DNA from: a virus
Direction: 5' to 3' (one strand)
DNA: 64,000 nucleotides
Virus record (IMG/VR): IMGVR_UViG_3300034159_000059
The translations under genes were made by a program, and so were the position numbers. Position 1 is the first letter of the stretch. Each line of letters opens with the position of its first letter. Of this stretch, positions 2,448-56,325 are shown piece after piece. The notes under the pieces are model-generated. The model made no database searches. It saw nothing but the letters and a program-made list of their open reading frames with translations, and was not told the origin of the DNA.

Positions 2448-2746
2448 ACGCTGTTCTTGCTTGGTTCCTCACGTCCTTCCTTCTGATCCACATCTTCCTG
2501 GCCATCACGTTCGTCAGCGCTCGAAGGCCGATGCTCCTAGGGTTTCCCGTCCTAGGCATCACGCTTGTCTTTGTGAGTGGCAGCTACCTCAAGGCGAACA
2601 TAAGCTGGGAGCATCCTGGAGAGAGCGCTCTGACTCTCTTCGTCGTGACGCTCTTGCACATCGGTGTAGCTATCCTCGCCGCCCTCACTTCTAAGCAGAT
2701 GAAAGACGGAACTGAGGGCAAGGAGCAAACTGGGAGGAAGGATTAA
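2444..2746 (+). CDS. Small integral membrane protein (about 3 TM helices)
   Basis: Internal ATG with AAGGAGAT RBS; ATGA overlap with the previous stop; sequence strongly hydrophobic. Confidence 0.55.
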   Translation: MNAVLAWFLTSFLLIHIFLAITFVSARRPMLLGFPVLGITLVFVSGSYLKANISWEHPGESALTLFVVTLLHIGVAILAALTSKQMKDGTEGKEQTGRKD

Positions 2747-3201
2747 TGGGGAGAGGGAAGCCGTACTTCGAAGATGATCCTTTCCTGAAGTGGGTTTCTC
2801 AACATCAGGCAGAGCTTGAGACCGCTCTGCCTGGGAAGCGGATCGCCGTCGGTCCCCTATTCGTGGATGGCACAACGGGTGTGGTGGCTTCAGCGGACAC
2901 CTACGCCGAGTTGTACGAGAAGGTCAAGAAGCTAGGGATGCTGGAATCGACCCTGATCGCGAAAGTCCGAGATCCTCGTTCTCTCAAGATGCGGACGGTG
3001 GCAGAGCGCCTAGCTCTCATCCCCGCAGAAGAGAAGGAGAGGCTGAGCAACTTGGCGACTCTCATCATCCATCAAGCGCACAACGAGGACGTGGAGGCTG
3101 CCAAGCGTGTCATCCTCAGAATCCTCCAAGGCACCTTCCTCGCAGGGCGTGAAGGGGAATGGTTCATCGATCCACAGAAGAATGGAGAAGATCCACTGTG
3201 A
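2746..3201 (+). CDS. Hypothetical protein
   Basis: 151-aa ORF; TAATG start/stop overlap, consistent with operon coupling. Confidence 0.55.
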   Translation: MGRGKPYFEDDPFLKWVSQHQAELETALPGKRIAVGPLFVDGTTGVVASADTYAELYEKVKKLGMLESTLIAKVRDPRSLKMRTVAERLALIPAEEKERLSNLATLIIHQAHNEDVEAAKRVILRILQGTFLAGREGEWFIDPQKNGEDPL

Positions 3202-3503
3202 AGAGAAAGCCAAAGGAGTGGGGAGCAGAAGCCCTTGGGGATCTCATCCTCAAGAAGGTTCGTAACAAAGAGATGCGGGCTAACCTAGCAATCGCAGCAG
3301 TTCGCCTGGCAGAGGAAGAGGAGCGTGAGGTCATCATAGCCTTCCACAACATGGGCTACGCGATGGCACGTGGAGATGCGCAAGCTCACTCCTCTCCCTC
3401 GTACAAGGAGCACGTCAATACGATGGTGGACAGGGCAGCGTTCTACCGCGAGCTCTCCGAGTATATCTGGGACAGGAAGGCCTCACGTAAGAAGGGAGAA
3501 TGA
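3198..3503 (+). CDS. Hypothetical protein; GTG start, GTGA overlap
   Basis: GGAGAAG RBS 7 nt before GTG 3198; alternative ATG at 3159 would overlap the previous gene by 43 nt. Confidence 0.45.
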   Translation: MKRKPKEWGAEALGDLILKKVRNKEMRANLAIAAVRLAEEEEREVIIAFHNMGYAMARGDAQAHSSPSYKEHVNTMVDRAAFYRELSEYIWDRKASRKKGE

Positions 3504-3505
3504 TC

Positions 3506-3946
3506 ATGCTACTCACCGCGCAGAATGTTCATAACACCGTCATCGACTGTCTCTTCGAGGAGGATACGCCGGAGAACCGCGCACGATCGGTCATCGTCGA
3601 GGGCATCCTCTACAACTTCGGCTTCGATCCAACGAAGCTGGAGAAGCACAAGGAGGATATCGCAGACATGCTCAGGCAGTTGCCTCCGACCTTCAAGCAA
3701 GAGGTTGGAGGAGGGTGGAGCTTCCTCAATGCCTGCATCCGCGCAGTCGACGGAGTTCAGTGGGGAGAGCATCGAGACATGGATGCCCTCTTCTCCCTCG
3801 GTATGGCTGTGGGGCTCGTGAAGAGTTGTTTGCCGAGGGAGCAGTGGTCCCAGCTCCCCAACGGCATGCCGTACTACGTGATCTTGGAGAGCCCCAAGAA
3901 GGAGGAAGCATGCGCGCATTCTACTTCGGATGCTTCGGCGAGCTAG
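3506..3946 (+). CDS. Hypothetical protein
   Basis: ORF 3500..3946; second ATG (3506) has better RBS spacing after GGGAG. Confidence 0.5.
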   Translation: MLLTAQNVHNTVIDCLFEEDTPENRARSVIVEGILYNFGFDPTKLEKHKEDIADMLRQLPPTFKQEVGGGWSFLNACIRAVDGVQWGEHRDMDALFSLGMAVGLVKSCLPREQWSQLPNGMPYYVILESPKKEEACAHSTSDASAS

Positions 3947-4287
3947 GCCACTACTGGTGGAGTACTTCTCTTCGAGAGAAGATCTTCGACACCCCGCAGG
4001 AGCTGGGTAGAGGGCTCGCCATTGATGGGATCTATGCACCCTTCGGGAGAGAGATCGAAGGCTCTGCGCAGATCGTCTACATGCGGCCCCCGAACCAGCA
4101 CAAGGCCTGGACCATCATCGCCTTCTGGGACCGGTCCGTAGACAAGAGATCTGGATCCAACAGCGCCTTCGTACTCGAAGGCGTCTATCCCTTCGAGGAC
4201 GCACTTCACATCGCGAAGGGGCAGTTCCCTGACGTCTTCAAGCGCTTCACGTTCCCCATCACTCGATGGGAGCCACCCGCTGTATGA
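3910..4287 (+). CDS. Hypothetical protein (MRAFYFGCFGELGHYWW…)
   Basis: ATG preceded by AAGGAGGAAG RBS; 37-nt overlap with the previous gene. Confidence 0.45.
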   Translation: MRAFYFGCFGELGHYWWSTSLREKIFDTPQELGRGLAIDGIYAPFGREIEGSAQIVYMRPPNQHKAWTIIAFWDRSVDKRSGSNSAFVLEGVYPFEDALHIAKGQFPDVFKRFTFPITRWEPPAV

Positions 4288-4298
4288 AAGGAACACAG

Positions 4299-4553
4299 AT
4301 GCCCAAGAAGCCGAATCAAGCTGCGCCGAAGAAGTCGAAGAGCGTCACTCTGAAGGAGCTGCGGGTCTCTCTCGGGAGGACCGTCAAGGAGGTGGAGAAG
4401 GATACCTTCGCCGTGAGTGGTTGGGTGAGTGAGGCAGAGAAGCCCAGGGATCATCGCCTCTCCACCATCAAATCCTACATCCAAGCGCTGGGAGGAGAGT
4501 TGGAGCTCTTCGTCCGCTTCGGCAAGAAGAAGCGTCTCCAGCTCGACATCTAG
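4299..4553 (+). CDS. Putative XRE-family helix-turn-helix DNA-binding protein
   Basis: LKELRVSLGRTVKEV…TIKSYIQALGGELELFV resembles Cro/C1-type HTH regulators; RBS AAGGAA. Confidence 0.55.
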   Translation: MPKKPNQAAPKKSKSVTLKELRVSLGRTVKEVEKDTFAVSGWVSEAEKPRDHRLSTIKSYIQALGGELELFVRFGKKKRLQLDI

Positions 4554-4561
4554 GAGGCACC

Positions 4562-4864
4562 ATGGAGAACATCATCTCTCACCTGCACAGCAATCCAAAG
4601 CTGTTGGTCACAGCCATGGTCACGGTTTGTGAGACAGCGGCGATGCTATTCATCTTCCTCGTCGTTCGTCCGTCCTGGACCATCGCAGGTCTCTCGTATC
4701 TCGGTATCCTGTTGTTGATGGCAGGAGCCGGGCTCATGAGCGTGCAGATGAAGATCGCTGGATGGGAGACGGCGATCGTCGGCCTTCTTGTCCTTACCTA
4801 CGTCCGTCATCACATCTTCTCAAAGCCAGTTCGCAGACCACGTATGCGAGCGGATCGTTCATGA
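4562..4864 (+). CDS. Small membrane protein (2-3 TM)
   Basis: AGGAGG RBS; hydrophobic segments LVTAMVTVCETAAMLFIFLVV and GLSYLGILLLMAGAGLM. Confidence 0.6.
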   Translation: MENIISHLHSNPKLLVTAMVTVCETAAMLFIFLVVRPSWTIAGLSYLGILLLMAGAGLMSVQMKIAGWETAIVGLLVLTYVRHHIFSKPVRRPRMRADRS

Positions 4865-5397
4865 CATCGAATGAACCGAAGCATGCCGTGACGCACATCT
4901 TGGCCGAGTGGCGCAAGGAAGTGGAGAAGGAGCTTCGGGGTTCTGAAGCCGTTTGCACCAACATTTACAACGACCCGAAGGACAGGTCTGTCTATAACGA
5001 ACGGGCCTGGCGGAGCGCGCGGATTCTTCGACGCATCGCCGAACTGGAACAGGCTGCGGCAACCACCATCCCCACACAGAGCGTGGGGATGGAAGCGACG
5101 TGCCAATGCGGTCGGGTGAAGCAGTCTACAGAACCAGAGCAAGGATGGAACGCTCAAGGCATCGGTGAGGATCTGCCTGGAGGGTACATGCTGATCCACA
5201 ACCTCAACGAGGACTGCTACGTCGAGCCGCCGACCTATGAGACTGGAGAAGGAAGAGCTGAAGCACTGGAAGCAGAACGTTCCACTCGATGCGTTGGCAC
5301 AGTCTGGACGAACGAGGCACGAGCCTACGTCGATGAGATCCTGACTGCTCTTGAGACCGCAGAGGCAGAGGTCCGGCGACTGGGCACGAAGAAGTGA
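4861..5397 (+). CDS. Hypothetical protein
   Basis: ATGA overlap with the upstream stop; the ORF track N-terminal extension (from 4762) lies inside the previous gene. Confidence 0.55.
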   Translation: MTSNEPKHAVTHILAEWRKEVEKELRGSEAVCTNIYNDPKDRSVYNERAWRSARILRRIAELEQAAATTIPTQSVGMEATCQCGRVKQSTEPEQGWNAQGIGEDLPGGYMLIHNLNEDCYVEPPTYETGEGRAEALEAERSTRCVGTVWTNEARAYVDEILTALETAEAEVRRLGTKK

Positions 5398-5404
5398 GAT
5401 CAAA

Positions 5405-6415: not shown

Positions 6416-6422
6416 TGCAGAG

Positions 6423-6458
6423 AAAGACGAGAGACGTATCCTCTCGTCTTTCTTAGCT
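6423..6458 (+). terminator. Rho-independent terminator (12-bp perfect stem)
   Basis: GAAAGACGAGAG-acgtatc-CTCTCGTCTTTC followed by TTAGCTCT. Confidence 0.7.
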
Positions 6459-6544
6459 CTCACACACTCTCACATGAAGGGGAGCCTACTACTGGCCCAT
6501 CAAGACTTTGCATCTCTCAGACACCGTGTTACCGAGAAGAGGCC

Positions 6545-7429
6545 GTGGCTCTTCTCATCTCTTCTACTGAACTTCCTGAGCATTGGTACAACCGAGTCGC
6601 TACCTCGATCGAGCGCCTTCACTGGAAGGTGACATCGGTGGTGGCTGTATCTTTGGTAGTCGTCGTCGCATCTACCGACGCGGCTATCGATCGGCTTGCC
6701 GGCTCCGACATCAACCTCGTCTTGCTGTACCTCGTGCCTGTAGCCTTTGGCGCCTGGACAGGAAGAGCACGAATGGGCTGGGTCATCTCAACACTCAGCG
6801 CTCTCAGCGCCGTAGGTCCACACCTCATATCCTCTCCAGAGCAATCTCTCGCGCTCAGCCTGAACATGGGCGTCGATATGCTCGTCTTCCTCTCCATCAG
6901 CTACGTGCTACCAGGCCTACGCAGCCTCCTAGAACACGAGAAACTGGTCTCTCGCACAGATCATCTCACAGGGGTTGCTAACTCCAGAGCGCTTCGAGAG
7001 AGGGCTTTGCGAGAGATACTGCGAGCACGCAAGCACGGGTACGAGCTGTCGGTTGCGTATCTAGACGTAGACGATTTCAAAGCCATCAACGATAAGCACG
7101 GGCATGCAGGAGGCGATCGCATCCTCAAGCTCATCAGCTCTATCACTCGACAAGCTCTACGCTCCACAGACATGGTTGCGAGAGTAGGAGGAGATGAGTT
7201 CGCTCTACTCCTACCAAACACAGGAGCTGCGGCTGCGAAGCGCGTCGTGGAGAGAGTCCGTTCTGAGGTGTATCGAGCATCCCAGGCCGCTGGGGTAGAG
7301 GTGACGCTAAGCATCGGAGTGAAGACCTTTGCTGATATCCCATTGAGCGTAGAAGAACTCGTCGAGTCCGTGGATCTTCTCATGTACTCCGTGAAGAGAG
7401 ACCGGAAGGACGACGTCGTCTACGCCTGA
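6545..7429 (+). CDS. Membrane-anchored GGDEF-domain diguanylate cyclase
   Basis: About 4 N-terminal TM helices followed by a canonical GGDEF domain: DHLTGVANSRAL…YLDVDDFKAINDKHGHAGGD…RVGGDEFALLLP (intact GGDEF active site). GTG start after GAGAAGAGG. Confidence 0.8.
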   Translation: MALLISSTELPEHWYNRVATSIERLHWKVTSVVAVSLVVVVASTDAAIDRLAGSDINLVLLYLVPVAFGAWTGRARMGWVISTLSALSAVGPHLISSPEQSLALSLNMGVDMLVFLSISYVLPGLRSLLEHEKLVSRTDHLTGVANSRALRERALREILRARKHGYELSVAYLDVDDFKAINDKHGHAGGDRILKLISSITRQALRSTDMVARVGGDEFALLLPNTGAAAAKRVVERVRSEVYRASQAAGVEVTLSIGVKTFADIPLSVEELVESVDLLMYSVKRDRKDDVVYA

Positions 7430-7510
7430 AGAGCTCCTGCAAACCGACCAGTTCCTGCGGAATAAGAAACTGAAGCGACCGGTAGTATCGCTCTTCTCTC
7501 AGGAGGTCTC

Positions 7511-7609
7511 ATGCTGGGATTCGCAGGCTTCGCCGTCTTCTTCCTCGTCATCGCTGGTCTCTGTGACAAGGCACGAAAGAAGAGGATCGAGAAAGACAAG
7601 AAGAAGTGA
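7511..7609 (+). CDS. 32-aa hydrophobic peptide (MLGFAGFAVFFLVIAGLCDKARKKRIEKDKKK)
   Basis: Perfect AGGAGG RBS 6 nt upstream; one TM segment plus a basic tail; not in the ORF track (too short). Confidence 0.35.
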   Translation: MLGFAGFAVFFLVIAGLCDKARKKRIEKDKKK

Positions 7610-7692
7610 AAGAGAGACATAAGAACGTAGAGGAGCATTGAGCTTGGGTTCCCTTCGGACCTCCCAAACCCCAAAGCTTGCGCACTCCGGCG

Positions 7693-7728
7693 GTAGGTGT
7701 CCCTCCTGACACCTACCGCTGTTTTCTT
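7693..7728 (+). terminator. Rho-independent terminator
   Basis: GGTAGGTGT-ccctcctg-ACACCTACC followed by GCTGTTTTCTT. Confidence 0.7.
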
Positions 7729-7745
7729 AGCACTTGGAGCACGAC

Positions 7746-8204
7746 ATGATGATCGAGACAGCAGTCGAAGAGGCGAAGAACGAGTGCGTCGTCTTCCTAG
7801 GCCTACAACACGTGCCTGGTACAACGCAGGAGGTAGTGGCGGCCTTGGGGCCAGTGCTCAAGGCTTTGAAGAAGGTCATCGTTACCTCTCATTTTCTCAC
7901 CGGAAGGAAGGGCGAGGATCGGAGAGGAGTAGTGGTGTATGAGGCAGAGGGGGTAGAGCCTCAGAACGATGCCTTCAAGCTGATGCGAAAGCTAGTCTTC
8001 ACGCCGGAAGGCTCGCTCGTAATGGAAGACGTGCTCACGTGTCAGAACGAGTGTCATGTGTATGCGGTGCATGCACGAGAAGTAGAGCTAGAAGTAGTGC
8101 TTCAAGAGGGAGTGACGCCTCGACAGCTCGTTGAAACCATCAAGGAATTCCTATGTGACCCAGACGAGGCTGTCATGGGACCAACTCTCGGCATGATCCA
8201 CTGA
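7746..8204 (+). CDS. Hypothetical protein
   Basis: ATG 6 nt after GGAG; the ORF track TTG start at 7734 overlaps the RBS. Confidence 0.55.
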   Translation: MMIETAVEEAKNECVVFLGLQHVPGTTQEVVAALGPVLKALKKVIVTSHFLTGRKGEDRRGVVVYEAEGVEPQNDAFKLMRKLVFTPEGSLVMEDVLTCQNECHVYAVHAREVELEVVLQEGVTPRQLVETIKEFLCDPDEAVMGPTLGMIH

Positions 8205-8289: not shown

Positions 8290-8775
8290 GTGACCGTTGC
8301 GCTCGTAGAGGGAGACGACGTGGAGACGGGGAATCCGCACGAGAGGTTGTTGAAAGAAGAGATGTTGCGAGCAGAGATCGCTCGGTTGAAGGCCATGACC
8401 GCGTTGTTCGAGGACATGGGCGCCCTCTTCAAAGGGATGGCAAGTCAAGCAGAAGCAGAAGCTGACGTGGCCATCTGCAAGAAGGAAGAAGTCGAGAGGG
8501 ATAGCAAAGACGTGGATCTGAAGGAGCTCTTGGCGAGCAAGCGCAAGTCGGAGATCGAGCTGGAGATCGCTCGAAATCGAGATCAGGTAAAGCGCATCCA
8601 AGAGCGGACGGAGCAGCACCGACGAGGGCAGCCTCCGAAGAGCCCTTATCGAAAAGATCCAAAGACTTCGGTGCATGCAGACAAGAAGGAGGTGTTGGTG
8701 GACACACAGAGCAGTGCGTCTCTCAAGGGTCCCATTCGAGGACTTGATAAGGTCCCGACGACGGCATCTCCGTGA
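8290..8775 (+). CDS. Coiled-coil hypothetical protein
   Basis: GTG start 4 nt after GAGGAGG; Glu/Lys/Arg-rich heptad-like sequence. Confidence 0.5.
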   Translation: MTVALVEGDDVETGNPHERLLKEEMLRAEIARLKAMTALFEDMGALFKGMASQAEAEADVAICKKEEVERDSKDVDLKELLASKRKSEIELEIARNRDQVKRIQERTEQHRRGQPPKSPYRKDPKTSVHADKKEVLVDTQSSASLKGPIRGLDKVPTTASP

Positions 8776-8783
8776 ACGAGCTC

Positions 8784-8812
8784 GGGCCGCCGAAAGGCGG
8801 CCCGTCTCTTAG
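8784..8812. terminator. Hairpin terminator at the convergent gene boundary
   Basis: GGGCCGCC-gaaa-GGCGGCCC followed by GTCTCTTAGC; lies between the last + gene and the first minus gene. Confidence 0.6.
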
Positions 8813-8830
8813 CTCAAGCTCTTAGCCCGT

Positions 8831-9145
8831 CTACGACTTCACGACGGCCAGCGATGTGAGCTGCCCGGAGGTATTCATGGTAAGGGCGAGGGACATTGTC
8901 TCCACCAAGGTGCCTGATGCGTCGTACTGTTTCTTTGTGACGGAGGTTAGGACCCCACTCACGTCACGCGAGAGGGAAGTCTCTCGGATCTTCTGCGTCT
9001 TCCCTGAAGACGTCCAGAGGATGACAGAAGAGAGACGCCCATTCACGTCTCTCGACAGCTCTAGGTAGCCAGTGAAGAGGCTCCCGTGCGCCAGAGTGTG
9101 TCTGGTGTCGTGAGATACCTCGTTGATGATGTGAGGAATGGGCAT
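8831..9145 (-). CDS. Hypothetical protein (distal end of the tail operon)
   Basis: 104-aa ORF; start abuts the stop of the upstream fiber gene. Confidence 0.45.
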   Translation of the reverse strand: MPIPHIINEVSHDTRHTLAHGSLFTGYLELSRDVNGRLSSVILWTSSGKTQKIRETSLSRDVSGVLTSVTKKQYDASGTLVETMSLALTMNTSGQLTSLAVVKS

Positions 9146-9147
9146 GG

Positions 9148-10785
9148 TCAGCTCATAGCGATGACGAGGTCTCCGACGTTATGGACGTCAGCGTCGATCT
9201 GAGAGAGATCCTTCTGTCCTGTCCCCTTCAGGCTGTTCACGGCGTTGGTGATGGCCGTATTCGATGCCGGGTCGGGGGGCAGGTAGTCTGTCTTGGTTCG
9301 GATGGACCCCACGACGTCTCGGTCGATTTGTTGGAAGCCTGATGAGGTAGAGGCTGGGTCGGGAGGGAGGTTGTCCGTCTTGGCTTTGATAGCGACGATG
9401 CGATCTCTGTCATCGGACGTGAAAGCGTTGGCGCCTACACCAACCACTGAATCGATATGAGAGTTCGAGGCGGGATCGGATGGCAGGTAGTCTGTCTTGG
9501 CGCGGACCGCGACGATGTCTGAACGGTTGCTGTCTTCCGTAGACTTGATCGAAGCGAGGGTAGTGCGATCGGTAGACGTGAACGAGTTGTTGGTGACTGT
9601 AGCCACTGCCACGGCAGTGGCGTGCAGAGAGTCTGTCGAGCCCGTATATCCAGTACCTGCTAGATAGTCTCGGGCTCCGTTCACACCTGTGGCAGATGCC
9701 GGATCCGAAGGAAGGTTGTCGGTCTTGAGCTTGACCCCACGAGCGTAGACGTAGGTCTCGCTGATGGTCCTCTTCACATTCGAGCCGTAAGAGTTGTCGA
9801 GCCCGAAGAGAGCATCTCTGGCAGTAGTCACATCGCCCTGAGTAGACACTACGGAAGCGGGCATGACTGCGTTGATGGCGTTCAGTGCAGCACGATCGTC
9901 TGCGGTGAAGCCTCCTGATCCGGAGACGATGCCTGTGAGAGAGAGCTGAAGCTGGTGCAGGGAGTCTGTGGCCGCGCTGAAGCCCGTTCCTGCAAGAGCG
10001 GTGACATCACTCTGAGCCGCAGGAGTTGCTGGAAGGTTGTCGGTCTTGAGCTTGACCGCAGCGAGCTCGATCTGAATGTTGTGTAGAGAGTCTGTGCCAG
10101 AGACCCAACCCGAACCGCCTTTGAGCTCAGTGGCTCGGCTGTCTGTGTTCGAGTTGATGGACGTGACTGCACTCGTCACGTCCCCAACGGCAGCAGGAGC
10201 CGCTGGAAGGTTGTCTGTCTTCGCCTTGATGGCGTTGACGTTCGAGCGATCGGATGAGTTGAAAGAGTTCGTACCCAGCCACGTCTCGATCCCTGAAGTA
10301 GACACCGGATCGGAGGGCAAGTTGTCGGTCTTGGCCTTGACTGCCAGAAGCGTAGTGCGATCGTCTGAGCCGAAACCGCCACCAGAACTGCTTCCAGCAG
10401 ATACGTTCTGAATGTCCGCGGAGATGGAGGTGCTGACTGGAGTGCCGAGACGGTTGTATACGTCGGTCGCGTCTGCAACGACGATCTTCACCACTCCAGG
10501 GTATCGAGCCGCGCCGACGCACGTGACCATGTACTGGAACACACCAGGCTGATCTGTGTACGTCGCTGGGATGAGGATGTTGTAGTACCCAGCCTGGGAG
10601 TAAGCCCCTTGAGTCTTCTCCTCCCACATGCTCGGTGAGACGGTCAGATTAAACATCGTCCCATCGGATTTGATGACTGTGCAGTTGATGGAGCTGTACG
10701 CGACTCCGGCCATAGGCGCGTCAGAGACAGAGTCAACCAAGGTGACTGGCGCACGAACCACAGTGCTTTGCTTGTATTCAAGCAT
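9148..10785 (-). CDS. Tail fiber-like protein with tandem (A/K)KTDNLP(x)PA repeat units
   Basis: At least 7 copies of a roughly 35-45-aa unit …AVKAKTDNLPSDPAS…; paralog of 22433..23803 with near-identical stretches (DVTSAVTSINSN). Confidence 0.65.
   Translation of the reverse strand: MLEYKQSTVVRAPVTLVDSVSDAPMAGVAYSSINCTVIKSDGTMFNLTVSPSMWEEKTQGAYSQAGYYNILIPATYTDQPGVFQYMVTCVGAARYPGVVKIVVADATDVYNRLGTPVSTSISADIQNVSAGSSSGGGFGSDDRTTLLAVKAKTDNLPSDPVSTSGIETWLGTNSFNSSDRSNVNAIKAKTDNLPAAPAAVGDVTSAVTSINSNTDSRATELKGGSGWVSGTDSLHNIQIELAAVKLKTDNLPATPAAQSDVTALAGTGFSAATDSLHQLQLSLTGIVSGSGGFTADDRAALNAINAVMPASVVSTQGDVTTARDALFGLDNSYGSNVKRTISETYVYARGVKLKTDNLPSDPASATGVNGARDYLAGTGYTGSTDSLHATAVAVATVTNNSFTSTDRTTLASIKSTEDSNRSDIVAVRAKTDYLPSDPASNSHIDSVVGVGANAFTSDDRDRIVAIKAKTDNLPPDPASTSSGFQQIDRDVVGSIRTKTDYLPPDPASNTAITNAVNSLKGTGQKDLSQIDADVHNVGDLVIAMS
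9225..10350 (-). repeat. Intragenic tandem repeat array encoding the KTDNLP units
   Basis: Recurrent (a)agaccgacaacct(t/g)cc(g/a)tc… DNA units; segment 10185-10255 is nearly identical to 23155-23225. Confidence 0.5.
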
Positions 10786-11637
10786 CTAGTTGGTCCTCGG
10801 GTTGGTGCGAGTGCGCTTGAGGTTCTTCATCGTTCCACCCGTACCAGTGGCTGTGGAGATGATGTTCTTCATGGGACGGGAAGCTGAGTGGTGGACCGGG
10901 ACCGAGCTCGCTTGAGGATTCGCAGCGGCATACAGAGGAGCCGCTGAGAGGTAGTGCTCAGTGATGCGAGCCTGGCTGAGCGCTCCGCTGTACACAGCCA
11001 TGTCATTGAGACGGATGTTATTGGCATAGTAGGACGTGGAATTCCCTAGAAGAGCGTTCGAGGAGTTTTTCACGGTCCCTGAAGAGACTGTCCCATACCC
11101 TGTCCCTAGAAGCACTTTGCCGTTCACGTACCAAGATGCGCCATTCACAAAGGATCCGGAGCCATCCCAAACCATCACCAGGTGGACCCAAGCGCCTGCC
11201 GAGTACGTCGCGTTCGGTGATGAGTTCGTATAGTTGGAGGTACCGTTATTCATGAGGAAGCTGAAATGCCCTTGGTAGGCGTACATCGACCAAGCGTTCG
11301 AGGACGATCCCTTGCTGATGATTCCCAAGTTCGTAGTGAGGAAGCCTATGTCAGCGAACCAGCACTCAACGGTGAAAGGCTGGTTGTACTCGAAGTCCCC
11401 GACCGAGGTCGGTAGTGTGACGACTCCGTTCGAATTCCCCGGGAAGGATACACACAAGCTGTCTGCCTTACCTCCGCCTAGACCGATCAAACGGGCATCT
11501 TGCCCAATCACCATAGAACTACCGTAGACCCCGTTCCGCCCGTTTGGGGAAGAATCCACAGCCGTCGTCCCTGAAGACTCGATGAGTCTCCAAAAACCAA
11601 CAGGAGAGTCTGCGAGCACTGCTGTAGCGTAGGACAT
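10786..11637 (-). CDS. Concanavalin A-like lectin/glucanase (LamG-type) domain protein; possible receptor-binding/adhesin module
   Basis: VGFWRL…SSPNGRNGVY…FTVECWF…AWVHLVMVWDGSGS…YVNGK matches the LamG jelly-roll signature; ATG at 11637 follows the stop of the upstream gene. Confidence 0.6.
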   Translation of the reverse strand: MSYATAVLADSPVGFWRLIESSGTTAVDSSPNGRNGVYGSSMVIGQDARLIGLGGGKADSLCVSFPGNSNGVVTLPTSVGDFEYNQPFTVECWFADIGFLTTNLGIISKGSSSNAWSMYAYQGHFSFLMNNGTSNYTNSSPNATYSAGAWVHLVMVWDGSGSFVNGASWYVNGKVLLGTGYGTVSSGTVKNSSNALLGNSTSYYANNIRLNDMAVYSGALSQARITEHYLSAAPLYAAANPQASSVPVHHSASRPMKNIISTATGTGGTMKNLKRTRTNPRTN

Positions 11638-11639
11638 GG

Positions 11640-12986
11640 CTATAGGTTGACGGGCATGAGGAAGAAGCGAAAAGTGCATACCGGGAAATAGGTGTAGAGG
11701 ATGACCTCTCCTATACTCGTAGAACTGTTGGTTCTAGAAGCAAAGGCGAAAGAAGACGCGCTGTACCCGTTGTACACGTCACCGGAAGGAGGCGTGTTAT
11801 TCCCTACACTGCCGGGGAAGTCACAGCGAATCATCACGTAGGTGTTGCCGTCATCAGAGGGTCCAAAACTCGCAAGATGGAGACCACTCGGATTCATGAT
11901 GGGGTACTTGAGGTACTTCACATCCCCTCGCTTCCCCTCATTCCCCACCATCCCTGTAGAGCTGGGCTTTGCACTCTGATACGCATCAACGTCGCAGTAC
12001 TGAAACCGAGCTGCGTCGTCGAGACTGGTTCTCGTGAAGTCGTCGAGGTACGAATACCCTCTCGGAGAGAGGGTCGTCATGCAGGGATGCTGGATTACGG
12101 AGTTGGACCACATGGTGCTACTGATGGACTTCCAGATCTCAGCGCATCCCACTGTGTTATTGGCGTCTGTAATACTTGTCGCATAGTATGCGTTCAACCC
12201 TGAGTAATCCATGTTCGAACACGCAAAGAGGAGGCAGGAAGTGTCCCCTACTCTGTAGGGAGTGAGATTCCCGACGTAGAGAAAGTCTGCGACTCCAGAG
12301 AAAGATGGATCTCCTGATGTCCAGAGCCCAAGAGCATCAGGCAGTGCCCATAGGATGTACTGAATCTTGCTGGTCGAAGACTGTTGAGAGCTGAAGCCTC
12401 TCATGATCTCCATCGTGCTCGGGTTGGCGCCGACATGGGTTGATGCGTTCCATGTCTCATACACCTGGACGAATAGTAGATCTCCGTAAGAAGCACCCCG
12501 AGCCAGTAGAACGTAGAAGGTCTTCTGCTGGCTCGTACACTGAAGAACAACGTACCCACCGGTCTTGGTGTACGCCCTGCCAGGAGAGATGCTGGTTCCT
12601 GTGTAGTTGCGATCCAGAGTCGCTTGGTAACCGTTGGCGTTGGCCGCGTTGATGGTGTACCAGTTGGACTGATCCGAAGAGATCTGAGTGACTCCGGGAG
12701 CGATACACCTCGCAAAGCGCATCGCGTTGTTGTTGCCTTGCGAGATGGCGCTAGACCCGTTGGTCATCGTGGTCCCGTTCGCAGATACCAAGCCGGTGAC
12801 GTAACCAGTACATGCAAACGGGACGACCAGAGGGGTTCCAGACCTCTGGTCATCGTATAGAGTCCAACCATTCACGCCACTTCCGATGTCAGCCACGATA
12901 TCGGAGAGGATGTTTGCGAAGCTCGAAACAGGAAGAGCGGTGTAGCCTTGAGGAGATCCACCAGTGTGAGGGAAGAACCCAGCCAT
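11640..12986 (-). CDS. Hypothetical tail fiber/baseplate-associated protein
   Basis: 448-aa ORF in the fiber cluster; Ser/Thr/Gly/Asn-rich, beta-rich composition. Confidence 0.5.
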   Translation of the reverse strand: MAGFFPHTGGSPQGYTALPVSSFANILSDIVADIGSGVNGWTLYDDQRSGTPLVVPFACTGYVTGLVSANGTTMTNGSSAISQGNNNAMRFARCIAPGVTQISSDQSNWYTINAANANGYQATLDRNYTGTSISPGRAYTKTGGYVVLQCTSQQKTFYVLLARGASYGDLLFVQVYETWNASTHVGANPSTMEIMRGFSSQQSSTSKIQYILWALPDALGLWTSGDPSFSGVADFLYVGNLTPYRVGDTSCLLFACSNMDYSGLNAYYATSITDANNTVGCAEIWKSISSTMWSNSVIQHPCMTTLSPRGYSYLDDFTRTSLDDAARFQYCDVDAYQSAKPSSTGMVGNEGKRGDVKYLKYPIMNPSGLHLASFGPSDDGNTYVMIRCDFPGSVGNNTPPSGDVYNGYSASSFAFASRTNSSTSIGEVILYTYFPVCTFRFFLMPVNL

Positions 12987-15307: not shown

Positions 15308-15334
15308 GGCCCCGTTTCGGGGCCCTTTTTCTTC
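15308..15334 (+). terminator. Rho-independent terminator
   Basis: GGGCCCCG-ttt-CGGGGCCC followed by TTTTTCTT. Confidence 0.8.
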
Positions 15335-15386
15335 CCACGAGAGGCGTCTTCCTAGAGAATCCCCTTGAAACTGCAAGGGGATCCAC

Positions 15387-15599
15387 ATGGCGCTACGAGG
15401 TACAGTGAAGTGGTTCAACGATGCAAAGGGCTACGGGTTCATCAAGCCTGACGATGGGGGGAAGGACATCTTTGTCCACCACTCCGTCATCAAGATGGAT
15501 GGGTTCCGCACTCTCTCTGAAGGGGAGCGCGTCGAGTACACCATCGAGGCCGGGGCGAAGGGCCCGCAGGCCGTAAACGTCTCTCGCATCTCAGAGTAG
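15387..15599 (+). CDS. cspA: Cold-shock protein (CspA family, S1-like cold-shock domain)
   Basis: [35 protein letters not shown]…[20 protein letters not shown]: canonical CSD with RNP1 (KGYGFI) and RNP2 (VFVHH) motifs. Confidence 0.9.
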
Positions 15600-15614
15600 T
15601 GCTCAAGACAAGGG

Positions 15615-15658
15615 AAGGCCGCGCTCCCGGGGGGAAGAAGCGCGGCCTTCTTGTCGCC
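15615..15658. terminator. Hairpin terminator at the convergent boundary
   Basis: GAAGGCCGCGC-15 nt loop-GCGCGGCCTTC followed by TTGTCGCCC. Confidence 0.6.
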
Positions 15659-17108: not shown

Positions 17109-20100
17109 TCAGACCACGAGCGTGAGGCGGATGTAGTTGCAGGGGTACGGGACGTCGAGGGTCACGTCGATCATCACGGTGTCCGGGTTCTCCGGGTCCT
17201 GGATGATGTTGTTGAGCTGCGCTCCGTTGAGGATGCCATTGTCCTTCAGGAACTCCAGCATGCCGGTGATGGTCGTCCCGATGGTGTCGAGGAAGACTGA
17301 GGTGATGTTCTGCCGGCCGATGAAGCGACGGATACCTGCCCGAAGGAACTTGGCGACGAAGTCGACGTCCTTCGTGATCGAGAGCTCTCGCGTCTCGATG
17401 GTCGATGTGTCGGTGGAGAGCTGGTGCCGGCAGAATACCGGTCCGCCCTGCACCTCCTGCATGAGGATGAAGGCACCTCCACCCGCCATCTGATCGAGCT
17501 GCTTCTTGGTGAACTTCTCCGTCCCCACCACCCCGGTGAGGCCGGTCATGGGGTAGTTGGTGAGTCCCTGCTGCGGAGGCAGGCCAGCGATCATGCCTGC
17601 CACGACCGCACAGGCGTAGTAGCCGGGGACTTCCTTCTCCAGACCCGCGACGGTGGTCTTCACCGTATCGGGGAAGAAGGAGTAGGCCCGCCGGTTCGCG
17701 ATGCCAGAGTTCAGCGTCGCGACGGTAGAGGCGACGAGGGAGTAGTCCGGTTTGGCGGGGGAAGAGCCTGCGATCATCAGGCTCGCGCCGCGCACATTCA
17801 TGCTCCAAGCCGCATCGAGGATGTCGGTTGGAAGGGCTACGACCTCGTAGAAGTAGTCGTCGTTCTCTCCGGCCGCGAAGGTGGTACGGAGATTCACGAG
17901 GCCGCCGGTCACCGAGGAGATTGAGTAACGGTAGAAGACGCCGTTCCAGTTGAACTCGATGTAGACGCCATTCGCCACGGTGAAGGGCAGTGACGGATTG
18001 ATTCCGGCATCGACGAGACCAGCTTGAGGCGTGACGTCGACGAGGAGCTGGTCGGCAGTGGCAGTCGAGTTCGCAGAGACGCCACTCACGACCGCCCTTG
18101 GGGCGCGGGTAGTGGGCTGCGTCTTGTTGAAGAGGACGATTCGCTCGCCCATCTCCTCGGGCTGGCTCATCAGCGTGACGTGGGTGTTGAAGAGCTGATG
18201 CACCACATCATTCTGGGTGAGCAGTGCGATGGTGTAGACCTCTTCCGACTCCAAGAAGTCGGCTGCTCTGGCGTAGGCGAGCTCGGTTCCTTCCGGAGCG
18301 GAGCCAGAGATCTCGTCGACCCCGAGGGCACCGACCACGAATCCTGGGCAGTTGAGAAGAGCCAGGTAGGTACCGAAGGCGAGAGGGTTGGCGTCCGTCA
18401 CCGGGTCCATCACCGAGGTGAGGGTGCTGGTGTCTTGGAGATGGACGACTCCCGCGACTGCCGCGGACGCCGAGACATCGCGACGAAGTCCCTTGAACTG
18501 GATGTAGAGAGATGCCGGGCTGGTGGCGAAGTCGAGGGGGTAGCCAGTGACTGGATCGCGGACGAGATCCGGACCGATCACCAGGTTGCTGCTCACATCG
18601 ACGTAGGCGTCAGGATTCGGACGCCCTGTTCCGGCTGTCGCGGTCTGCGCTGCCGTGAAGCCGAGAGCCGTGAGAGCGGTTCCGTCGACGATGTAGACCA
18701 GAGATCCCGCGCCAGCAAGGGTGCTGGTGAGGACGAGGTTCGTCCCCGCTCCGTTCTTCGAAGCGACTGTGCCACCGACGAGCTGGTTGACGGTGTCGAC
18801 GGCGATGTCGAGCGAGGTATCGGTGAAGCCCACATCGTAGACGTGAGCGCCTCGGTCTAGAGAGAATCGGAGGTTCTCTCCAGTGAGCCCAGAGAACGAA
18901 GCGTCGGTTCCGGTACCGCTGGTGTCCGCGCTGGTGGAGTAGCCGAGGACCGTGGCCGCGGAGCTCGTCGCCTTGAAGGTGATGCTCTGAAGCCTTCCCG
19001 TCTTGGCGGTGGCAAGCTTCAGCTTGCCGGAATCGACAGAGGCAACGACGCCCGTGATGCTGACGGCCGCAGCCATTCCGGCGACGGTGGTGACGGGGGT
19101 GGAGCTTGTGAAGGTGAACGTTCCGACTGTCGCGACTCCATCCACCGTGAGGATGTAATCGATCCGGAGACCGGCGAGAGCCACGCCTCCGGACGGATCC
19201 GGGACGGCCCCGCCTTCGACCGAGGCGGCCACTGCTGCGGAAGCCGCAGCCGATCCCGTGACGGTGGACTTGGTTGCCGAAACGGTGGGCGAGAGCCCCG
19301 TTGCCTTGAACCACACGTACTGCGGCGCGAAGGGGGCAGCGTCGATGGGAAGACCGAGAAGAGCGTCGTCGTAGGTCTTCGAGAGGTAGCGGCCTTCCGT
19401 GTCAGCGGTAGAGAGGGCAGCGTCGATGGTGCCCATCCGGAAGCGAGTCGGATCGACGCGAGAGATCTCACCGCTCTTGAGCCGCGTGCCGTCGGCCCAG
19501 ATCTGATCCCCTGCCAGGATCGGGATGCCGTTGGTGCCGAAGGTGATGGCGGCAGAGCGTGCATGCGTCAGCGCGCCTGTGGCGACGTTGATCATGCCGG
19601 CATGAGAGGCCCAGGCCGAGTCTGCCGAAGAGACCCCACCCACGCTGTAGTCGCCACGGAAGAACTCGATCCAGGCGCTCTGTGTGGTGTTGTTCTGGAG
19701 GTTGTATGCACGGTAGCCGGCGCCGCACACCCTCTCTTCGGTTCCGACAGAGCCGACGGAGTTCCAGCCGATGCCGAGAAGAGCATTCGCCGTCCCACCC
19801 GCGCGCACCGTGATTGAGGAGAGCGCCCCGTAGCTCGGAGAGGAGAGACGGACGCCTGTGACGGAATCCCCCGACACAGTGACCGAAGCGATCGCCATCC
19901 CAAAGGCGTTGTTGATGACGGTGACGATGTCGGCCGGCGCGTAAGGAGACGAGCCCGGAAACGGGATGGTCACGTCTTGCGTGGTGTTGGCCGTAGTCGG
20001 CTGGTCGATGGCGAGAACGAGGTTCTGCCCACCGATGGAGAAGCTGGTTCCGACGATGTCGAGGACCGCCTTGGACGCCACATGGCTTGCGACCAGGAAG

Positions 20101-20426
20101 CCTTCTCCAGGATTCATCAGGAGCTCAGCGAGCCGACCTCCTGTGTAGAGGAAGGGACGGATCGAAGCCGTCTGGATGTCGACCTCGTCGATGTTGCCTC
20201 GCGGGTTCGGGAAAGACGAATGGGTGATCGTCTTTCCGAGCTGCGCGTAAGCACCGTACTTCGCCTTCGAGTTGATGGTTCCATCGGAGGTGAGGACGTT
20301 GATGACCTCGAAGGCCGCACCGACGATGACCGGCGCGAGCGTCGGCGTGAGGAACGTCGGCGACGTCTTGCGCGCGGTCTGAATGACATCGACGCCTGGC
20401 CGGGCGATCTCAGCAGTGGCGGCCAT
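17109..20426 (-). CDS. Tail sheath protein (1105 aa, with large insertion domains)
   Basis: N-terminus MAATAEIARPGVDVIQT… and C-terminus …QGGPVFCRHQLSTDTS…YIRLTLVV match the conserved sheath terminal domains; the long Thr/Ser/Gly/Ala middle is consistent with extra insertion domains. Confidence 0.8.
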   Translation of the reverse strand: MAATAEIARPGVDVIQTARKTSPTFLTPTLAPVIVGAAFEVINVLTSDGTINSKAKYGAYAQLGKTITHSSFPNPRGNIDEVDIQTASIRPFLYTGGRLAELLMNPGEGFLVASHVASKAVLDIVGTSFSIGGQNLVLAIDQPTTANTTQDVTIPFPGSSPYAPADIVTVINNAFGMAIASVTVSGDSVTGVRLSSPSYGALSSITVRAGGTANALLGIGWNSVGSVGTEERVCGAGYRAYNLQNNTTQSAWIEFFRGDYSVGGVSSADSAWASHAGMINVATGALTHARSAAITFGTNGIPILAGDQIWADGTRLKSGEISRVDPTRFRMGTIDAALSTADTEGRYLSKTYDDALLGLPIDAAPFAPQYVWFKATGLSPTVSATKSTVTGSAAASAAVAASVEGGAVPDPSGGVALAGLRIDYILTVDGVATVGTFTFTSSTPVTTVAGMAAAVSITGVVASVDSGKLKLATAKTGRLQSITFKATSSAATVLGYSTSADTSGTGTDASFSGLTGENLRFSLDRGAHVYDVGFTDTSLDIAVDTVNQLVGGTVASKNGAGTNLVLTSTLAGAGSLVYIVDGTALTALGFTAAQTATAGTGRPNPDAYVDVSSNLVIGPDLVRDPVTGYPLDFATSPASLYIQFKGLRRDVSASAAVAGVVHLQDTSTLTSVMDPVTDANPLAFGTYLALLNCPGFVVGALGVDEISGSAPEGTELAYARAADFLESEEVYTIALLTQNDVVHQLFNTHVTLMSQPEEMGERIVLFNKTQPTTRAPRAVVSGVSANSTATADQLLVDVTPQAGLVDAGINPSLPFTVANGVYIEFNWNGVFYRYSISSVTGGLVNLRTTFAAGENDDYFYEVVALPTDILDAAWSMNVRGASLMIAGSSPAKPDYSLVASTVATLNSGIANRRAYSFFPDTVKTTVAGLEKEVPGYYACAVVAGMIAGLPPQQGLTNYPMTGLTGVVGTEKFTKKQLDQMAGGGAFILMQEVQGGPVFCRHQLSTDTSTIETRELSITKDVDFVAKFLRAGIRRFIGRQNITSVFLDTIGTTITGMLEFLKDNGILNGAQLNNIIQDPENPDTVMIDVTLDVPYPCNYIRLTLVV

Positions 20427-22432: not shown

Positions 22433-23803
22433 TTACGGATCCTTGAGCTTCGAGAACTGCTGGAGGTTGCTGGTGTTGGGGATGTAGGAGCCGGTGATGG
22501 AGTAGACCGCGATCGGGTTCGTCTTGTTGATGGCGTCGTTGCGCGTCGGGTAGATGCGGATCTTGCCGCTGATGAGGTTGTTTCGAGCGTCGAAGTCCGT
22601 GTCCTCGATCTGGACGTTCTCCCCACAGAGCCCAAGAACCTTCGTCAGGTTATCCTTCACGGAGCTGAGCCAGACGTTGAAGTCCGAAGGGATGAGATCC
22701 GTCTTGGCCTTGATGTCTGTCAGGGTTCCGGACGCCGTACCAAGGCTACCAAGACCTGAAGCAACGGAGTCGAGAGCAGCTTTAGTAGAATGGAGGTCGT
22801 CTCCAGTCCCGAACCCCACCCCTTCGATGGAGTCGAGCTTTCCTGAGATAGCAGCGAGGTCGGTGGCAGGTGTTCCCTTGACCCCAGCAATGGCAGTCGT
22901 GATCACTTCCTGAGAGGTGGTGATCGCCCCTTCGATACCCGACTCCGCAGTTCCGAGGGCGTCTGTGACTACCGTCTGCGAAGAACCGATCTGGGAGAAG
23001 ACCTCTGAGAGATCCTTGCTGGAAGCGCCTTTGAGGCTTGCGACTGCTCCTGAGACGTCTCCAGAGCTCGCAGGTGCGGCGGGGATGAGGTCCGTCTGAG
23101 CCTTGATGTCCGCGGCCAGTGTAGAGGTGTTTGAGTTGATGCTCGTCACGGCACTCGTGACATCCCCTGTCGTAGCCGGAGCCGCAGGAAGGTTGTCTGT
23201 CTTCGCCTTTACCGCGAGCACATCCGTGTCTACTTGGGTGAGGTCTTTGGAAGACGCTCCCATGATAGCGGCCTGTGCCGAAGTCACGTCTGCTTGAGCC
23301 GCAGGCGTTGCGGGAAGATTGTCTGTCTGGGACTTGACTGCGAGAACGTCGGTATCGACCTGAGAGAGGTCCTTGCTTGACGCACCCTTGATGCTGGTGA
23401 CGGCGCTTGTCACATCACTCTGGGAAGCAGGGGTAGCAGGCAAGTTGTCGGTCTTGGTTTTGACTGCCAAGACGTCGGTGTCGACTTGAGACAGGTCCTT
23501 GTTCGAGGCGCCTTTGACTCCTGTCACTGCGGCATCGATGTAACCAGTGTTGAAGAGCTGGTCCTGGTCCTTGAGAGTGGCGCCGAGAGACACTCCTCCG
23601 GCAGAGACGCGGAAGATGACGTTGTGAACACCTGTCGGAGCAGCCGACCAGTCGTAGTCGAAGTAGTACCACCCGTCCCCGCTCGTGACCTCCGTAATGG
23701 TCGGAGGCGTAGAGAGGTCAGCCAAGGTATCGAGCCGCTTCCAGATGCTGAAGGCCGGAGTGAGGCCGGTCTTCCCTGCACCGAAATCAAGACCGTATCG
23801 CAT
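22433..23803 (-). CDS. Tail fiber-like protein with KTDNLP repeat units (paralog of 9148..10785)
   Basis: 4-5 tandem units …KDLSQVDTDVLAVK(T/A)KTDNLPATPA(S/A)QSDVTSAVTSI…; shares identical peptides and near-identical DNA with the other fiber. Confidence 0.65.
   Translation of the reverse strand: MRYGLDFGAGKTGLTPAFSIWKRLDTLADLSTPPTITEVTSGDGWYYFDYDWSAAPTGVHNVIFRVSAGGVSLGATLKDQDQLFNTGYIDAAVTGVKGASNKDLSQVDTDVLAVKTKTDNLPATPASQSDVTSAVTSIKGASSKDLSQVDTDVLAVKSQTDNLPATPAAQADVTSAQAAIMGASSKDLTQVDTDVLAVKAKTDNLPAAPATTGDVTSAVTSINSNTSTLAADIKAQTDLIPAAPASSGDVSGAVASLKGASSKDLSEVFSQIGSSQTVVTDALGTAESGIEGAITTSQEVITTAIAGVKGTPATDLAAISGKLDSIEGVGFGTGDDLHSTKAALDSVASGLGSLGTASGTLTDIKAKTDLIPSDFNVWLSSVKDNLTKVLGLCGENVQIEDTDFDARNNLISGKIRIYPTRNDAINKTNPIAVYSITGSYIPNTSNLQQFSKLKDP
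22990..23515 (-). repeat. Intragenic tandem repeat (about 126-nt units) encoding the KTDNLP repeats
   Basis: Repeated …ggaaggttgtctgtcttcgcc… unit visible in the DNA. Confidence 0.5.
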
Positions 23804-40265: not shown

Positions 40266-40306
40266 AGAAGGTCGGGCTTCCACACCCGACCTTCTTCCCT
40301 TTTAGG
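40266..40306 (+). terminator. Rho-independent terminator closing the + island
   Basis: AGAAGGTCGGG-cttccacac-CCCGACCTTCT followed by TCCCTTTTAGG; overlaps the terminase stop. Confidence 0.7.
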
Positions 40307-56000: not shown

Positions 56001-56325
56001 ACTCACCCCCGTCCACGATGAACGAGTAGCGAGAGGTGAGCTTGGGGACCCGAGCGAGTTGGATGGTCGACTTGGAGATGGGCTTGCCCGTGATGTTGTC
56101 GATCAGCTCCATCTCCGCCCGGATCGGCACACCCCAAGTCTGTTCGTTGTGCTTGGCTTGGAGCTGCGAAGCGACATCGTTCGGATCGAGAGTATCTTCC
56201 GCCCAGATTCTCTTGAGCGACAGAGTTCTCTGACTCGTCTGGATGGGGAAGATGCTGGAAATCTGCTGGATGACGCCATTGGTGAGGGTCGTCATCTTGT
56301 CGGCGGTCTTAGGCTCACCGGCCAC
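50014..56325 (-). CDS. rpoBC: Single-polypeptide bacterial-type multisubunit RNA polymerase: beta (RpoB-like) fused to beta' (RpoC-like), 2103 aa
   Basis: Beta signatures [12 protein letters not shown] and [22 protein letters not shown]…[17 protein letters not shown]; beta' catalytic motif [24 protein letters not shown]; the beta' N-terminal Zn-finger region appears absent; GTG start with GGAG RBS (alternative ATG at 56295). Confidence 0.9.
   Translation of the reverse strand: [2103 protein letters not shown]

Follow-up and report, generated by a model that had tools for sequence, protein, structure and literature searches.

A predicted membrane-anchored diguanylate cyclase with intact active-site and RxxD residues, encoded by a large soil phage and kept at one locus in related phages

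We report that a 64,000-nucleotide stretch of viral DNA (IMG/VR record IMGVR_UViG_3300034159_000059; this whole stretch is called the window below) carries, at positions 6545 to 7429, a gene for a 294-amino acid protein in which a multipass membrane domain is fused to a GGDEF domain with its catalytic and inhibitory residues in place. Our preferred reading, to which we assign a probability of roughly three in four, is that this protein is a catalytically competent inner-membrane diguanylate cyclase of a large soil phage, which raises cyclic di-GMP (c-di-GMP) in the host during infection. c-di-GMP is the main switch between the motile and the sessile state in bacteria, and a phage carrying an intact, feedback-regulated synthase could rewrite that decision directly. 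Viral GGDEF genes are common in databases and uncharacterised, and the window cyclase is not a new type of system; what is new is that related phages, diverged as they are, have kept it at the same locus, with both its active site (A-site) and its inhibitory site (I-site) conserved.

Results

The gene encodes a GGDEF domain with canonical catalytic and inhibitory residues

The gene and the parts of its product are as follows.

6545..7429, plus strand: diguanylate cyclase gene (294 amino acids; no possible start lies between its GTG and the in-frame stop that precedes it)
6632..6919, plus strand: membrane domain, DUF4118-like, residues 30-125 (about four hydrophobic helices)
6920..6955, plus strand: stalk helix, residues 126-137 (RSLLEHEKLVSR), leading into the DxLT turn of the GGDEF domain
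6956..7408, plus strand: GGDEF catalytic domain, residues 138-288
7064..7117, plus strand: substrate- and metal-binding stretch (D174-V-D176-D-F-K179-A-I-N182-D183...G186-H187...G190-D191)
7160..7171, plus strand: I-site RxxD, R206-S-T-D209 (cgc tcc aca gac), five residues before GGDEF
7187..7201, plus strand: A-site motif, G215-G-D-E-F219

Pfam assigned residues 138-288 to the GGDEF family (PF00990; E 3.2e-35, 121.7 bits against a cutoff of 23.8), and the protein contains the motifs DHLTG (139-143), DDFKAINDKHGH (176-187) and RVGGDEFALLLP (213-224). A phmmer search of the PDB matched 46 solved GGDEF sequences, with 5euh as the best (8.9e-28) and with the active cyclases PleD, WspR, DosC, YfiN/TpbB, SadC and GcbC among the matches. 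The initial annotation of this DNA had called the GGDEF domain intact on the strength of motifs that were all found in the frame 6545..7429, and the Pfam match, the active-site residues and the fold matches described below bear that call out.

We aligned the window protein with 35 full-length homologues (36 family members in all). D174, D176, K179, N182, D183, G186, H187, G190 and D191 were invariant or nearly so, as were R206, D209, R213, G215-G-D-E-F219, K284 and K288. A degenerate active site, the concern that had been attached to the call, was not seen on this alignment; every catalytic residue was canonical and conserved. We take the counterparts in PleD to be D327, K332, N335, D344, K442 and R446, and on this presumed mapping the conserved positions comprise the metal-binding Asp, the phosphate Lys, the guanine-specifying Asn and Asp, the I-site RxxD, the A-site and the C-terminal Lys/Arg pair. 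The counterpart of PleD R446 in the window protein is K288, as it is in most of the DUF4118-GGDEF family.

The initial annotation had also suggested looking for an I-site RxxD, and one is present: R206-S-T-D209 is followed by MVARV and then by GGDEF, and LRSTDMVARVGGDEF aligns with the RxxD, five residues and GGEEF of the c-di-GMP-bound domains 5euh and 3ign. Judged by this correspondence, the RxxD is probably an allosteric product-inhibition site, which would make the cyclase product-inhibited. The base-specificity position (the counterpart of PleD D344) is D191, within GHAGGD, and not the Ser or Thr of Hypr GGDEF domains. Asp at this guanine-specificity position argues that the product is c-di-GMP rather than cyclic GMP-AMP (cGAMP). 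In all six copies of the phage clade described below, the A-site and I-site residues were identical, despite an overall identity to the window protein of 35-39%, which is the pattern expected of a working, regulated enzyme.

The reading frame begins at a GTG that has a weak Shine-Dalgarno sequence (AAGAGG) two nucleotides 5' of it and that lies within a weak, nonsignificant hairpin (6534-6556). The choice of this start is supported by residues ∼10-28, which are conserved with the phage orthologues P0002 and P0006. The G+C content at third codon positions (0.61) was inside the range of the neighbouring accessory genes. Overlapping the cyclase start in another frame is an ATG-started frame of 52 codons (6475-6632, plus strand), 3' of the upstream hairpin; it is probably not a gene, and it could affect translation from the weak GTG.

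A helical stalk joins a compact membrane bundle to the catalytic domain

Hydropathy marked four hydrophobic segments in the N-terminal 125 residues (∼30-50, 57-73, 80-96 and 103-125). The KdpD-type DUF4118 family (PF13493) matched residues 33-121 below threshold (17.4 bits against a cutoff of 28.4, E 0.0037), and about one-quarter of the homologues listed carry a precomputed PF13493 match. Hydropathy and charge together favour four passes with both termini in the cytoplasm, an arrangement in which the two Arg of loop 74-79 would face the cytoplasm and the acidic short loops would face outward. Because the putative external loops are at most six residues long, there is no periplasmic or extracytoplasmic sensor domain, and with no visible sensor domain the activity is probably governed mainly by the timing of phage transcription.

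An AlphaFold2 (AF2) model built from the 36-member alignment had a predicted local distance difference test score (pLDDT) of 93.6, rising to ∼98 over the GGDEF domain, and a predicted template-modelling score of 0.81. It consists of an amphipathic helix (12-23), three long hydrophobic helices (27-52, 59-96 and 98-136) and then the GGDEF alpha/beta domain. Helix 98-136 runs unbroken from the last transmembrane pass through the stalk into the catalytic domain, and this continuity, seen in a model of the monomer, would be compatible with a dimeric stalk. The initial annotation had given the protein about four N-terminal transmembrane helices; the multipass anchor and its four hydrophobic segments hold, and the count is less secure since the DSSP assignment of the model merges two of them. 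With a probability of 1.00, Foldseek matched the model to more than 40 solved cyclase chains (root mean square deviation 1.6-3 Å over ∼160 residues), PleD, WspR, DosC and YfiN being among them. The best matches were stalk-bearing cyclases, namely SiaD, GCN4-WspR, DgcR, DgcB, PleD and a phytochrome cyclase.

The cyclase gene lies within the genome of a large phage

The window carries the following structural, packaging and transcription genes.

17109-20426: tail sheath (PHROGs)
30856-32037: major head protein (PHROGs)
40302-42188: large terminase, TerL (PHROGs, E 9e-62)
50014-56325, minus strand: fused beta-beta' multisubunit RNA polymerase, one 2103-amino acid ORF (Pfam)
58263-60368: portal (PHROGs)

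The polymerase ORF combines Rpb2 domain 6 of the beta subunit (E 1e-63) with Rpb1 domains 1-5 of beta'. Among cultured phages, the closest are Salmonella phage Arash (181 kb) and Vibrio phages D181, D148 and D69 (187 kb), whose terminase and RNA polymerase are ∼30% identical to those of the window, and a megablast search with 25 kb of the window returned no match among 50,697 phage records. The identical cyclase is recorded on two contigs from separate sources, the 109-kb source contig of the window (Logan SRR10968273) and a JGI contig (209 kb), and in the JGI record it is accompanied by its 448-amino acid neighbour and by the 332-amino acid gene at 207-1205. We conclude that the phage is large, myovirus-like and from soil, with a genome of at least 109 kb and probably of more than 200 kb; our analysis covered ∼74 kb of it.

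Phage DNA extends for 6.5 kb to one side of the cyclase and for 56 kb to the other, with a further 10 kb of small ORFs upstream. The gene sits near the 3' end of an 18.5-kb block of ∼40 small plus-strand ORFs, in which the only Pfam matches were GGDEF, DUF7694 and Phage_phiTE_072, and it immediately precedes a divergently oriented tail-fibre/baseplate-like module. The block probably consists of small accessory ORFs that are expressed early. No integrase, repressor or excisionase was found among the 65 window ORFs scanned, the best hint being a Phage_integrase match far below threshold (E 0.065), and no tRNAs were detected. We found no sigma-70 promoter, which matters little given that the phage has its own RNA polymerase.

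Several related phages keep the gene at the same locus

The best non-self homologues of the cyclase are 280-310 residues long and 36-44% identical to it over more than 80% of their length, the transmembrane domain included, and those with named sources come from metagenome-assembled genomes (MAGs) of Acidobacteriota, Gemmatimonadota and Armatimonadota. Searching with the conserved 448-amino acid structural protein retrieved 20 relatives. Copies of the cyclase at 35-40% identity lie on three related contigs (L041, the P0006 contig and L133), and on all three the GGDEF gene is on the same side of a conserved module of genes for 104-, 545-, LamG and 448-amino acid proteins. Only L041 of these three retains the 151- and 161-amino acid genes between GGDEF and the module.

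L041 is a 13.6-kb contig from forest soil and carries the homologue P0002 (40% identity, 96% coverage). Its GGDEF gene is followed on the 3' side by three extra ORFs, a small transmembrane peptide and homologues of window genes 7749-8204 and 8290-8775, and then by minus-strand genes for 104-amino acid, 703-amino acid, LamG and 466-amino acid proteins that are 27-57% identical to the products of window 8831-12986. The order GGDEF, 199 and 335 amino acids of L041 is repeated on the P0006 contig. L133 (48 kb), one of those among the 20 relatives that were inspected, has a 306-amino acid GGDEF gene in the same accessory region, 36% identical to the window protein. Compared by eye, the L133 copy resembles P0041, which lies on L050, so L050 probably belongs to the same phage group and we infer a fourth related copy there. 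Directly upstream of the GGDEF gene of L041 is a NADAR-domain gene (PF08719; 2883-3392, plus strand), a neighbour that suggests that the block holds genes for host interference or counter-defence.

Shared insertions and deletions agree with the grouping of the phage copies in the tree. The simplest reading of these sequences, though they do not prove it, is that the gene was captured once, then inherited vertically and lost in some phages; the cyclase is a lineage-retained accessory gene whose catalytic and inhibitory residues are conserved. Searches made with other queries gave less. A scan of IMG/VR with the single window protein found only GGDEF genes that were 26-30% identical, and these are probably host flank and no relatives, as they lie within a few hundred bases of the ends of ∼38-kb prophage calls. 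A metagenome scan with the 448-amino acid neighbour found four short loci only. We had considered P0095, on a 208-kb contig, as a sister jumbo phage and rejected it because its context is a bacterial chromosome.

Proposed role of the cyclase and alternative explanations

We propose that the DUF4118-like helical bundle would anchor the cyclase and probably dimerise it, and that the last transmembrane helix would continue as the stalk into the cytoplasmic GGDEF domain. The two GTP-loaded GGDEF domains of the dimer would then condense two GTP into c-di-GMP; c-di-GMP bound at the RxxD I-site would cap the output, and phage transcription of the gene would time it. The rise in c-di-GMP would shift the infected cell toward a sessile state, with motility and pili down and adhesion and matrix up. 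The pay-off may be that infected cells stay among susceptible neighbours, that surface receptors are removed (superinfection exclusion), or both. On this analysis, reprogramming of host motility, biofilm or extracellular polysaccharide (EPS) is plausible.

A number of observations weigh against this proposal. Dimerisation and the physiological pay-off, like the activity of the enzyme and the timing of its expression, are what we would predict rather than what we observed. The GTG start and the poor Shine-Dalgarno sequence mean that expression may be low, and the DSSP assignment of the AF2 model fuses hydrophobic segments 2 and 3 into one helix (59-96), which sets three membrane passes against four. 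Among the 65 other ORFs of the window there was no PilZ, EAL or HD-GYP domain, and a riboswitch search turned up none for c-di-GMP, either at the gathering threshold or, in the first 16 kb, at E values up to 1, so that no phage effector, phosphodiesterase or riboswitch ties the cyclase to a particular pathway downstream. Three relatives that keep the structural synteny (L043, L051 and L134; 102-138 kb) have no GGDEF gene in the 6-10 kb inspected, so that the cyclase is dispensable; this tally leaves out L044, L135 and L136, whose contigs end too early. Finally, the neighbour-joining bootstrap for the group of the window protein, P0002, P0006, P0027 and P0041 together with P0004 and P0024 was 53%. 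This group takes in two sequences of bacterial-like or unknown context, so a phage-only clade is not strongly supported, and repeated acquisition of the phage copies is possible.

The same enzyme could instead be a lysogenic-conversion "moron," expressed from a prophage and making the lysogen more sessile or matrix-protected. The locus has the form of one: two strong hairpins enclose a discrete, potentially autonomous unit, the gene is variably present among syntenic relatives, and many prophage-type contigs in IMG/VR carry GGDEF genes. We nevertheless consider it unlikely, given the lack of any integrase, repressor or excisionase in the 65 ORFs scanned (∼74 kb of genome covered), the multisubunit RNA polymerase that the phage brings with it, and nearest cultured relatives, at only ∼30% identity, that are phages of 180-187 kb (Arash and Vibrio D181). 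The prophage calls also bear on whether the gene is viral in the first place, since most IMG/VR matches of the first scan lay at the ends of such calls and the closest named homologues are bacterial MAG proteins, as might be the case for bacterial DNA misjoined to phage or for the host flank of a prophage. That explanation is very unlikely, the least credible of those considered here: phage genes stand on both sides of the cyclase, the identical protein and its neighbours recur on two contigs of separate source, the same structural module lies beside the gene in three related fragments from different samples, and the composition of the gene matches that of its neighbours.

Other alternatives concern what the domain does. 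Degenerate GGDEF proteins are common in nature, and the domain might be no working c-di-GMP synthase at all but a receptor or scaffold, or a Hypr-type enzyme making cGAMP. The top Foldseek matches include 6d9m, which is described only as a Geobacter GGDEF fusion and which we take to be a Hypr cGAMP synthase. With all catalytic residues canonical and conserved, and with Asp (D191) rather than the Ser or Thr of Hypr enzymes at the specificity position, we see only a slight chance of this. An intact enzyme might still serve immunity or nucleotide conflict, as a source of c-di-GMP that acts as decoy or competitor in cyclic-nucleotide defence signalling, as a GTP sink, or as a signal for phage factors. 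Its place in an accessory block of unknown small ORFs would suit such a role, as would the L041 copy directly after the NADAR gene, a family linked to reversing ADP-ribosylation, and phage-host arms races over cyclic nucleotides are well documented (PMC12657218). We regard it as improbable, because guanine-specific residues and a strict I-site suit a dosed signalling enzyme and would prevent it from serving as a GTP sink, neither the 65 ORFs nor the riboswitch search yielded a phage c-di-GMP receptor or riboswitch, and PADLOC returned no match for the cyclase and nine neighbours, namely the 32-amino acid peptide described below and eight others (CBASS, mCpol/Panoptes and other systems).

A bolder version of our preferred reading, in which the cyclase raises host c-di-GMP during infection, is that it is a takeover device that large soil phages bearing an RNA polymerase have retained, using c-di-GMP for phage-specific ends. 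These might be the shutdown of pilus or flagellar receptors so that superinfecting phages are kept out, interference with cyclic-nucleotide immunity, or the timing of infection through an unrecognised phage receptor. We hold this version to be doubtful; were it true, no virus before this one would have been shown to make a bacterial second messenger to drive a regulatory circuit of its own.

Relation to known cyclases and to other phage routes to c-di-GMP

In length, architecture and A- and I-site residues the window protein is like the bacterial DUF4118-GGDEF cyclases of soil MAGs (Pyrinomonadaceae/Terriglobia, Gemmatimonadota and Armatimonadota), a family for which the literature searched offered no study of any member. 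It differs in being encoded by a phage, and the phage clade differs in having a 4-residue insertion after the first transmembrane helix and in lacking the "WN" of the fourth; three phage-clade copies also have in common the Lys of SIGVKTF. PleD, WspR, GcbC (5euh), SadC (4wxo), SiaD (7e6g), DgcR and DgcB resemble it in fold, GG(D/E)EF and RxxD. The N-terminal helix that the window protein has in common with PleD-type cyclases forms a dimeric stalk in the latter, which are regulated by receiver, sensor or partner-protein domains, whereas the window protein has only its compact transmembrane bundle.

Eight PHROG families are matched by GGDEF proteins, and each bears the label "unknown function"; in IMG/VR, the family alignment picked up at least 380 viral stretches with GGDEF, some of them internal on contigs of 178-407 kb. 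When the flanks were compared, no other genes were common to the window phage and these stretches. The other viral GGDEF genes belong to unrelated phages and mostly have an N-terminal architecture different from that of the window cyclase. Viral GGDEF genes have been mentioned descriptively for a Mu-like virus of the Cariaco Basin (PMC7785012) and for Methylobacterium phages from glacier ice (PMC8290583), phage G has a "DgcQ-like" gene (PMC12484599), and cyclases of sargassum viruses are likewise mentioned descriptively. We found no biochemically characterised phage cyclase in the searched literature.

The only studied phage route to higher c-di-GMP is the indirect one of lytic PB1-like Pseudomonas phages, whose YIP peptides bind YfiN, so that c-di-GMP and biofilm go up and motility goes down (De Smet et al. 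2020, PMC8085984). Here too, as proposed for the window cyclase, something made by the phage increases c-di-GMP in the infected cell; YIP, however, is a small peptide acting on a host cyclase, whereas the window phage carries the synthase itself. An effect of c-di-GMP on pili has been described, in that it induces PlzR and thereby blocks type IV pilus assembly (PMC11461919). At 294 residues, with canonical active and inhibitory sites and no complicating sensor domain, the window cyclase is a clean test candidate, and the comparative evidence of retention under selection in related phages adds to its value. The question bears on how soil phages may shape the aggregation and matrix production of their hosts.

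Flanking hairpins and the downstream peptide

The unit around the cyclase gene contains three further features.

6419..6457, plus strand: upstream hairpin, after the stop of the upstream gene at 6415, ending in TCTTAGC (6451-6457)
7501..7609, plus strand: AGGAGG ribosome-binding site (7501-7506) and 32-amino acid ORF (7511-7609)
7688..7731, plus strand: downstream hairpin with a 14-bp stem (7688-7721), then TTTTCTTAGC

The upstream hairpin had a folding energy of -23.6 kcal/mol (z -4.65), and none of 200 shuffles was as stable. The 14-bp stem of the downstream hairpin is followed by TTTTCTT, and the 126-nucleotide segment enclosing it had a z of -3.4. The order of hairpin, TTTCTTAGC, TTGGAG and ATG before the next gene is common to the window and L041. 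The initial annotation had described the unit as bounded by terminators; stable hairpins do stand on both sides, and we infer that they act as terminators.

The sequence (T)TCTTAGC trails strong hairpins after plus-strand genes at 6419-6457, 7688-7731 and 8784-8826 in the window and at 4415-4460 and 6945-6990 in L041, and at two of these sites a TTGGAG ribosome site and the next ATG come directly after. The role of this arrangement may be that of a terminator/restart or processing signal peculiar to this group of phages. As an enriched motif TCTTAGC was rejected, with seven occurrences window-wide against 4.8 expected, though these cluster after hairpins.

The ORF downstream of the cyclase encodes a peptide with one N-terminal transmembrane helix and a Lys/Arg-rich tail, and AGGAGG lies four nucleotides before its ATG. 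A syntenic peptide in L044 is 43% identical over 23 residues (pairwise E 6e-7) and itself matches a 42-amino acid ORF of L041 (53%, E 2e-14), the best tblastn hits being reciprocal. ORFs with a transmembrane helix and a basic tail were also seen by eye at the same spot in L134 and L133. The related small transmembrane peptides of the relatives sit just upstream of the homologue of the 151-amino acid gene. We conclude that the 32-amino acid peptide is a genuine conserved gene of a downstream module (the peptide and the 151- and 161-amino acid proteins).

This bears on the suggestion in the initial annotation that the tiny hydrophobic ORF might be a partner or regulator of the cyclase. The ORF and its ribosome-binding site are real, and synteny speaks against the partner role, with neither conserved adjacency nor conserved co-occurrence of the two genes. 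In L041, 2.3 kb with three genes and a hairpin lie between GGDEF and the peptide, which overlaps the stop codon of a 195-amino acid gene; in L134, a peptide of this type stands in a region that showed no GGDEF gene. This spacing and this occurrence rule the peptide out as a dedicated GGDEF partner. Its adjacency to GGDEF in the window reflects the absence there of the three intervening genes.

Neighbouring structural genes and other observations

Beyond the accessory unit, the sole Pfam signal among the neighbours is the following.

10786-11637: Laminin_G_3 match

The neighbouring genes had been described as secreted, beta-helix and depolymerase-like, hinting at an EPS theme. This description did not survive: Pfam, PHROGs and a PDB sequence search gave no depolymerase or beta-helix signal for the neighbours, Laminin_G_3 being the only match, and the AF2 model of the 448-amino acid neighbour (pLDDT 75.6) was nearest to a baseplate protein, that of JBD30, in a weak match (E 1.8e-3, template-modelling score 0.32-0.43). 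Endosialidase matches of the same model were discarded, with template-modelling scores of ∼0.14. The 545-amino acid tail-fibre-like protein (9148-10785, minus strand) has internal repeats of KAKTDNLPxDPAS. Its L041 homologue also matches the 456-amino acid ORF at 22433-23803 (minus strand), so the repeat is common to both, and neither repeat protein had a Pfam, PHROG or PDB match.

The 65 window ORFs scanned also include an RNase HII (PF01351, E 8e-28) and a glycine-zipper 2TM protein. An Rfam cspA thermoregulator match (15316-15653, plus strand; 84.1 bits against a gathering threshold of 78) spans a cold-shock-domain gene at 15387-15599, which is 72-74% identical in L051 and L134 and for which cold-shock-domain calls were made at the same spot in L135 and L136. 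L135 also encodes, at 2693-5401 on the minus strand, a 902-amino acid protein with a match to the major-vault-protein shoulder (PF11978) and a faint one to Vault_3, which is unusual for a phage.

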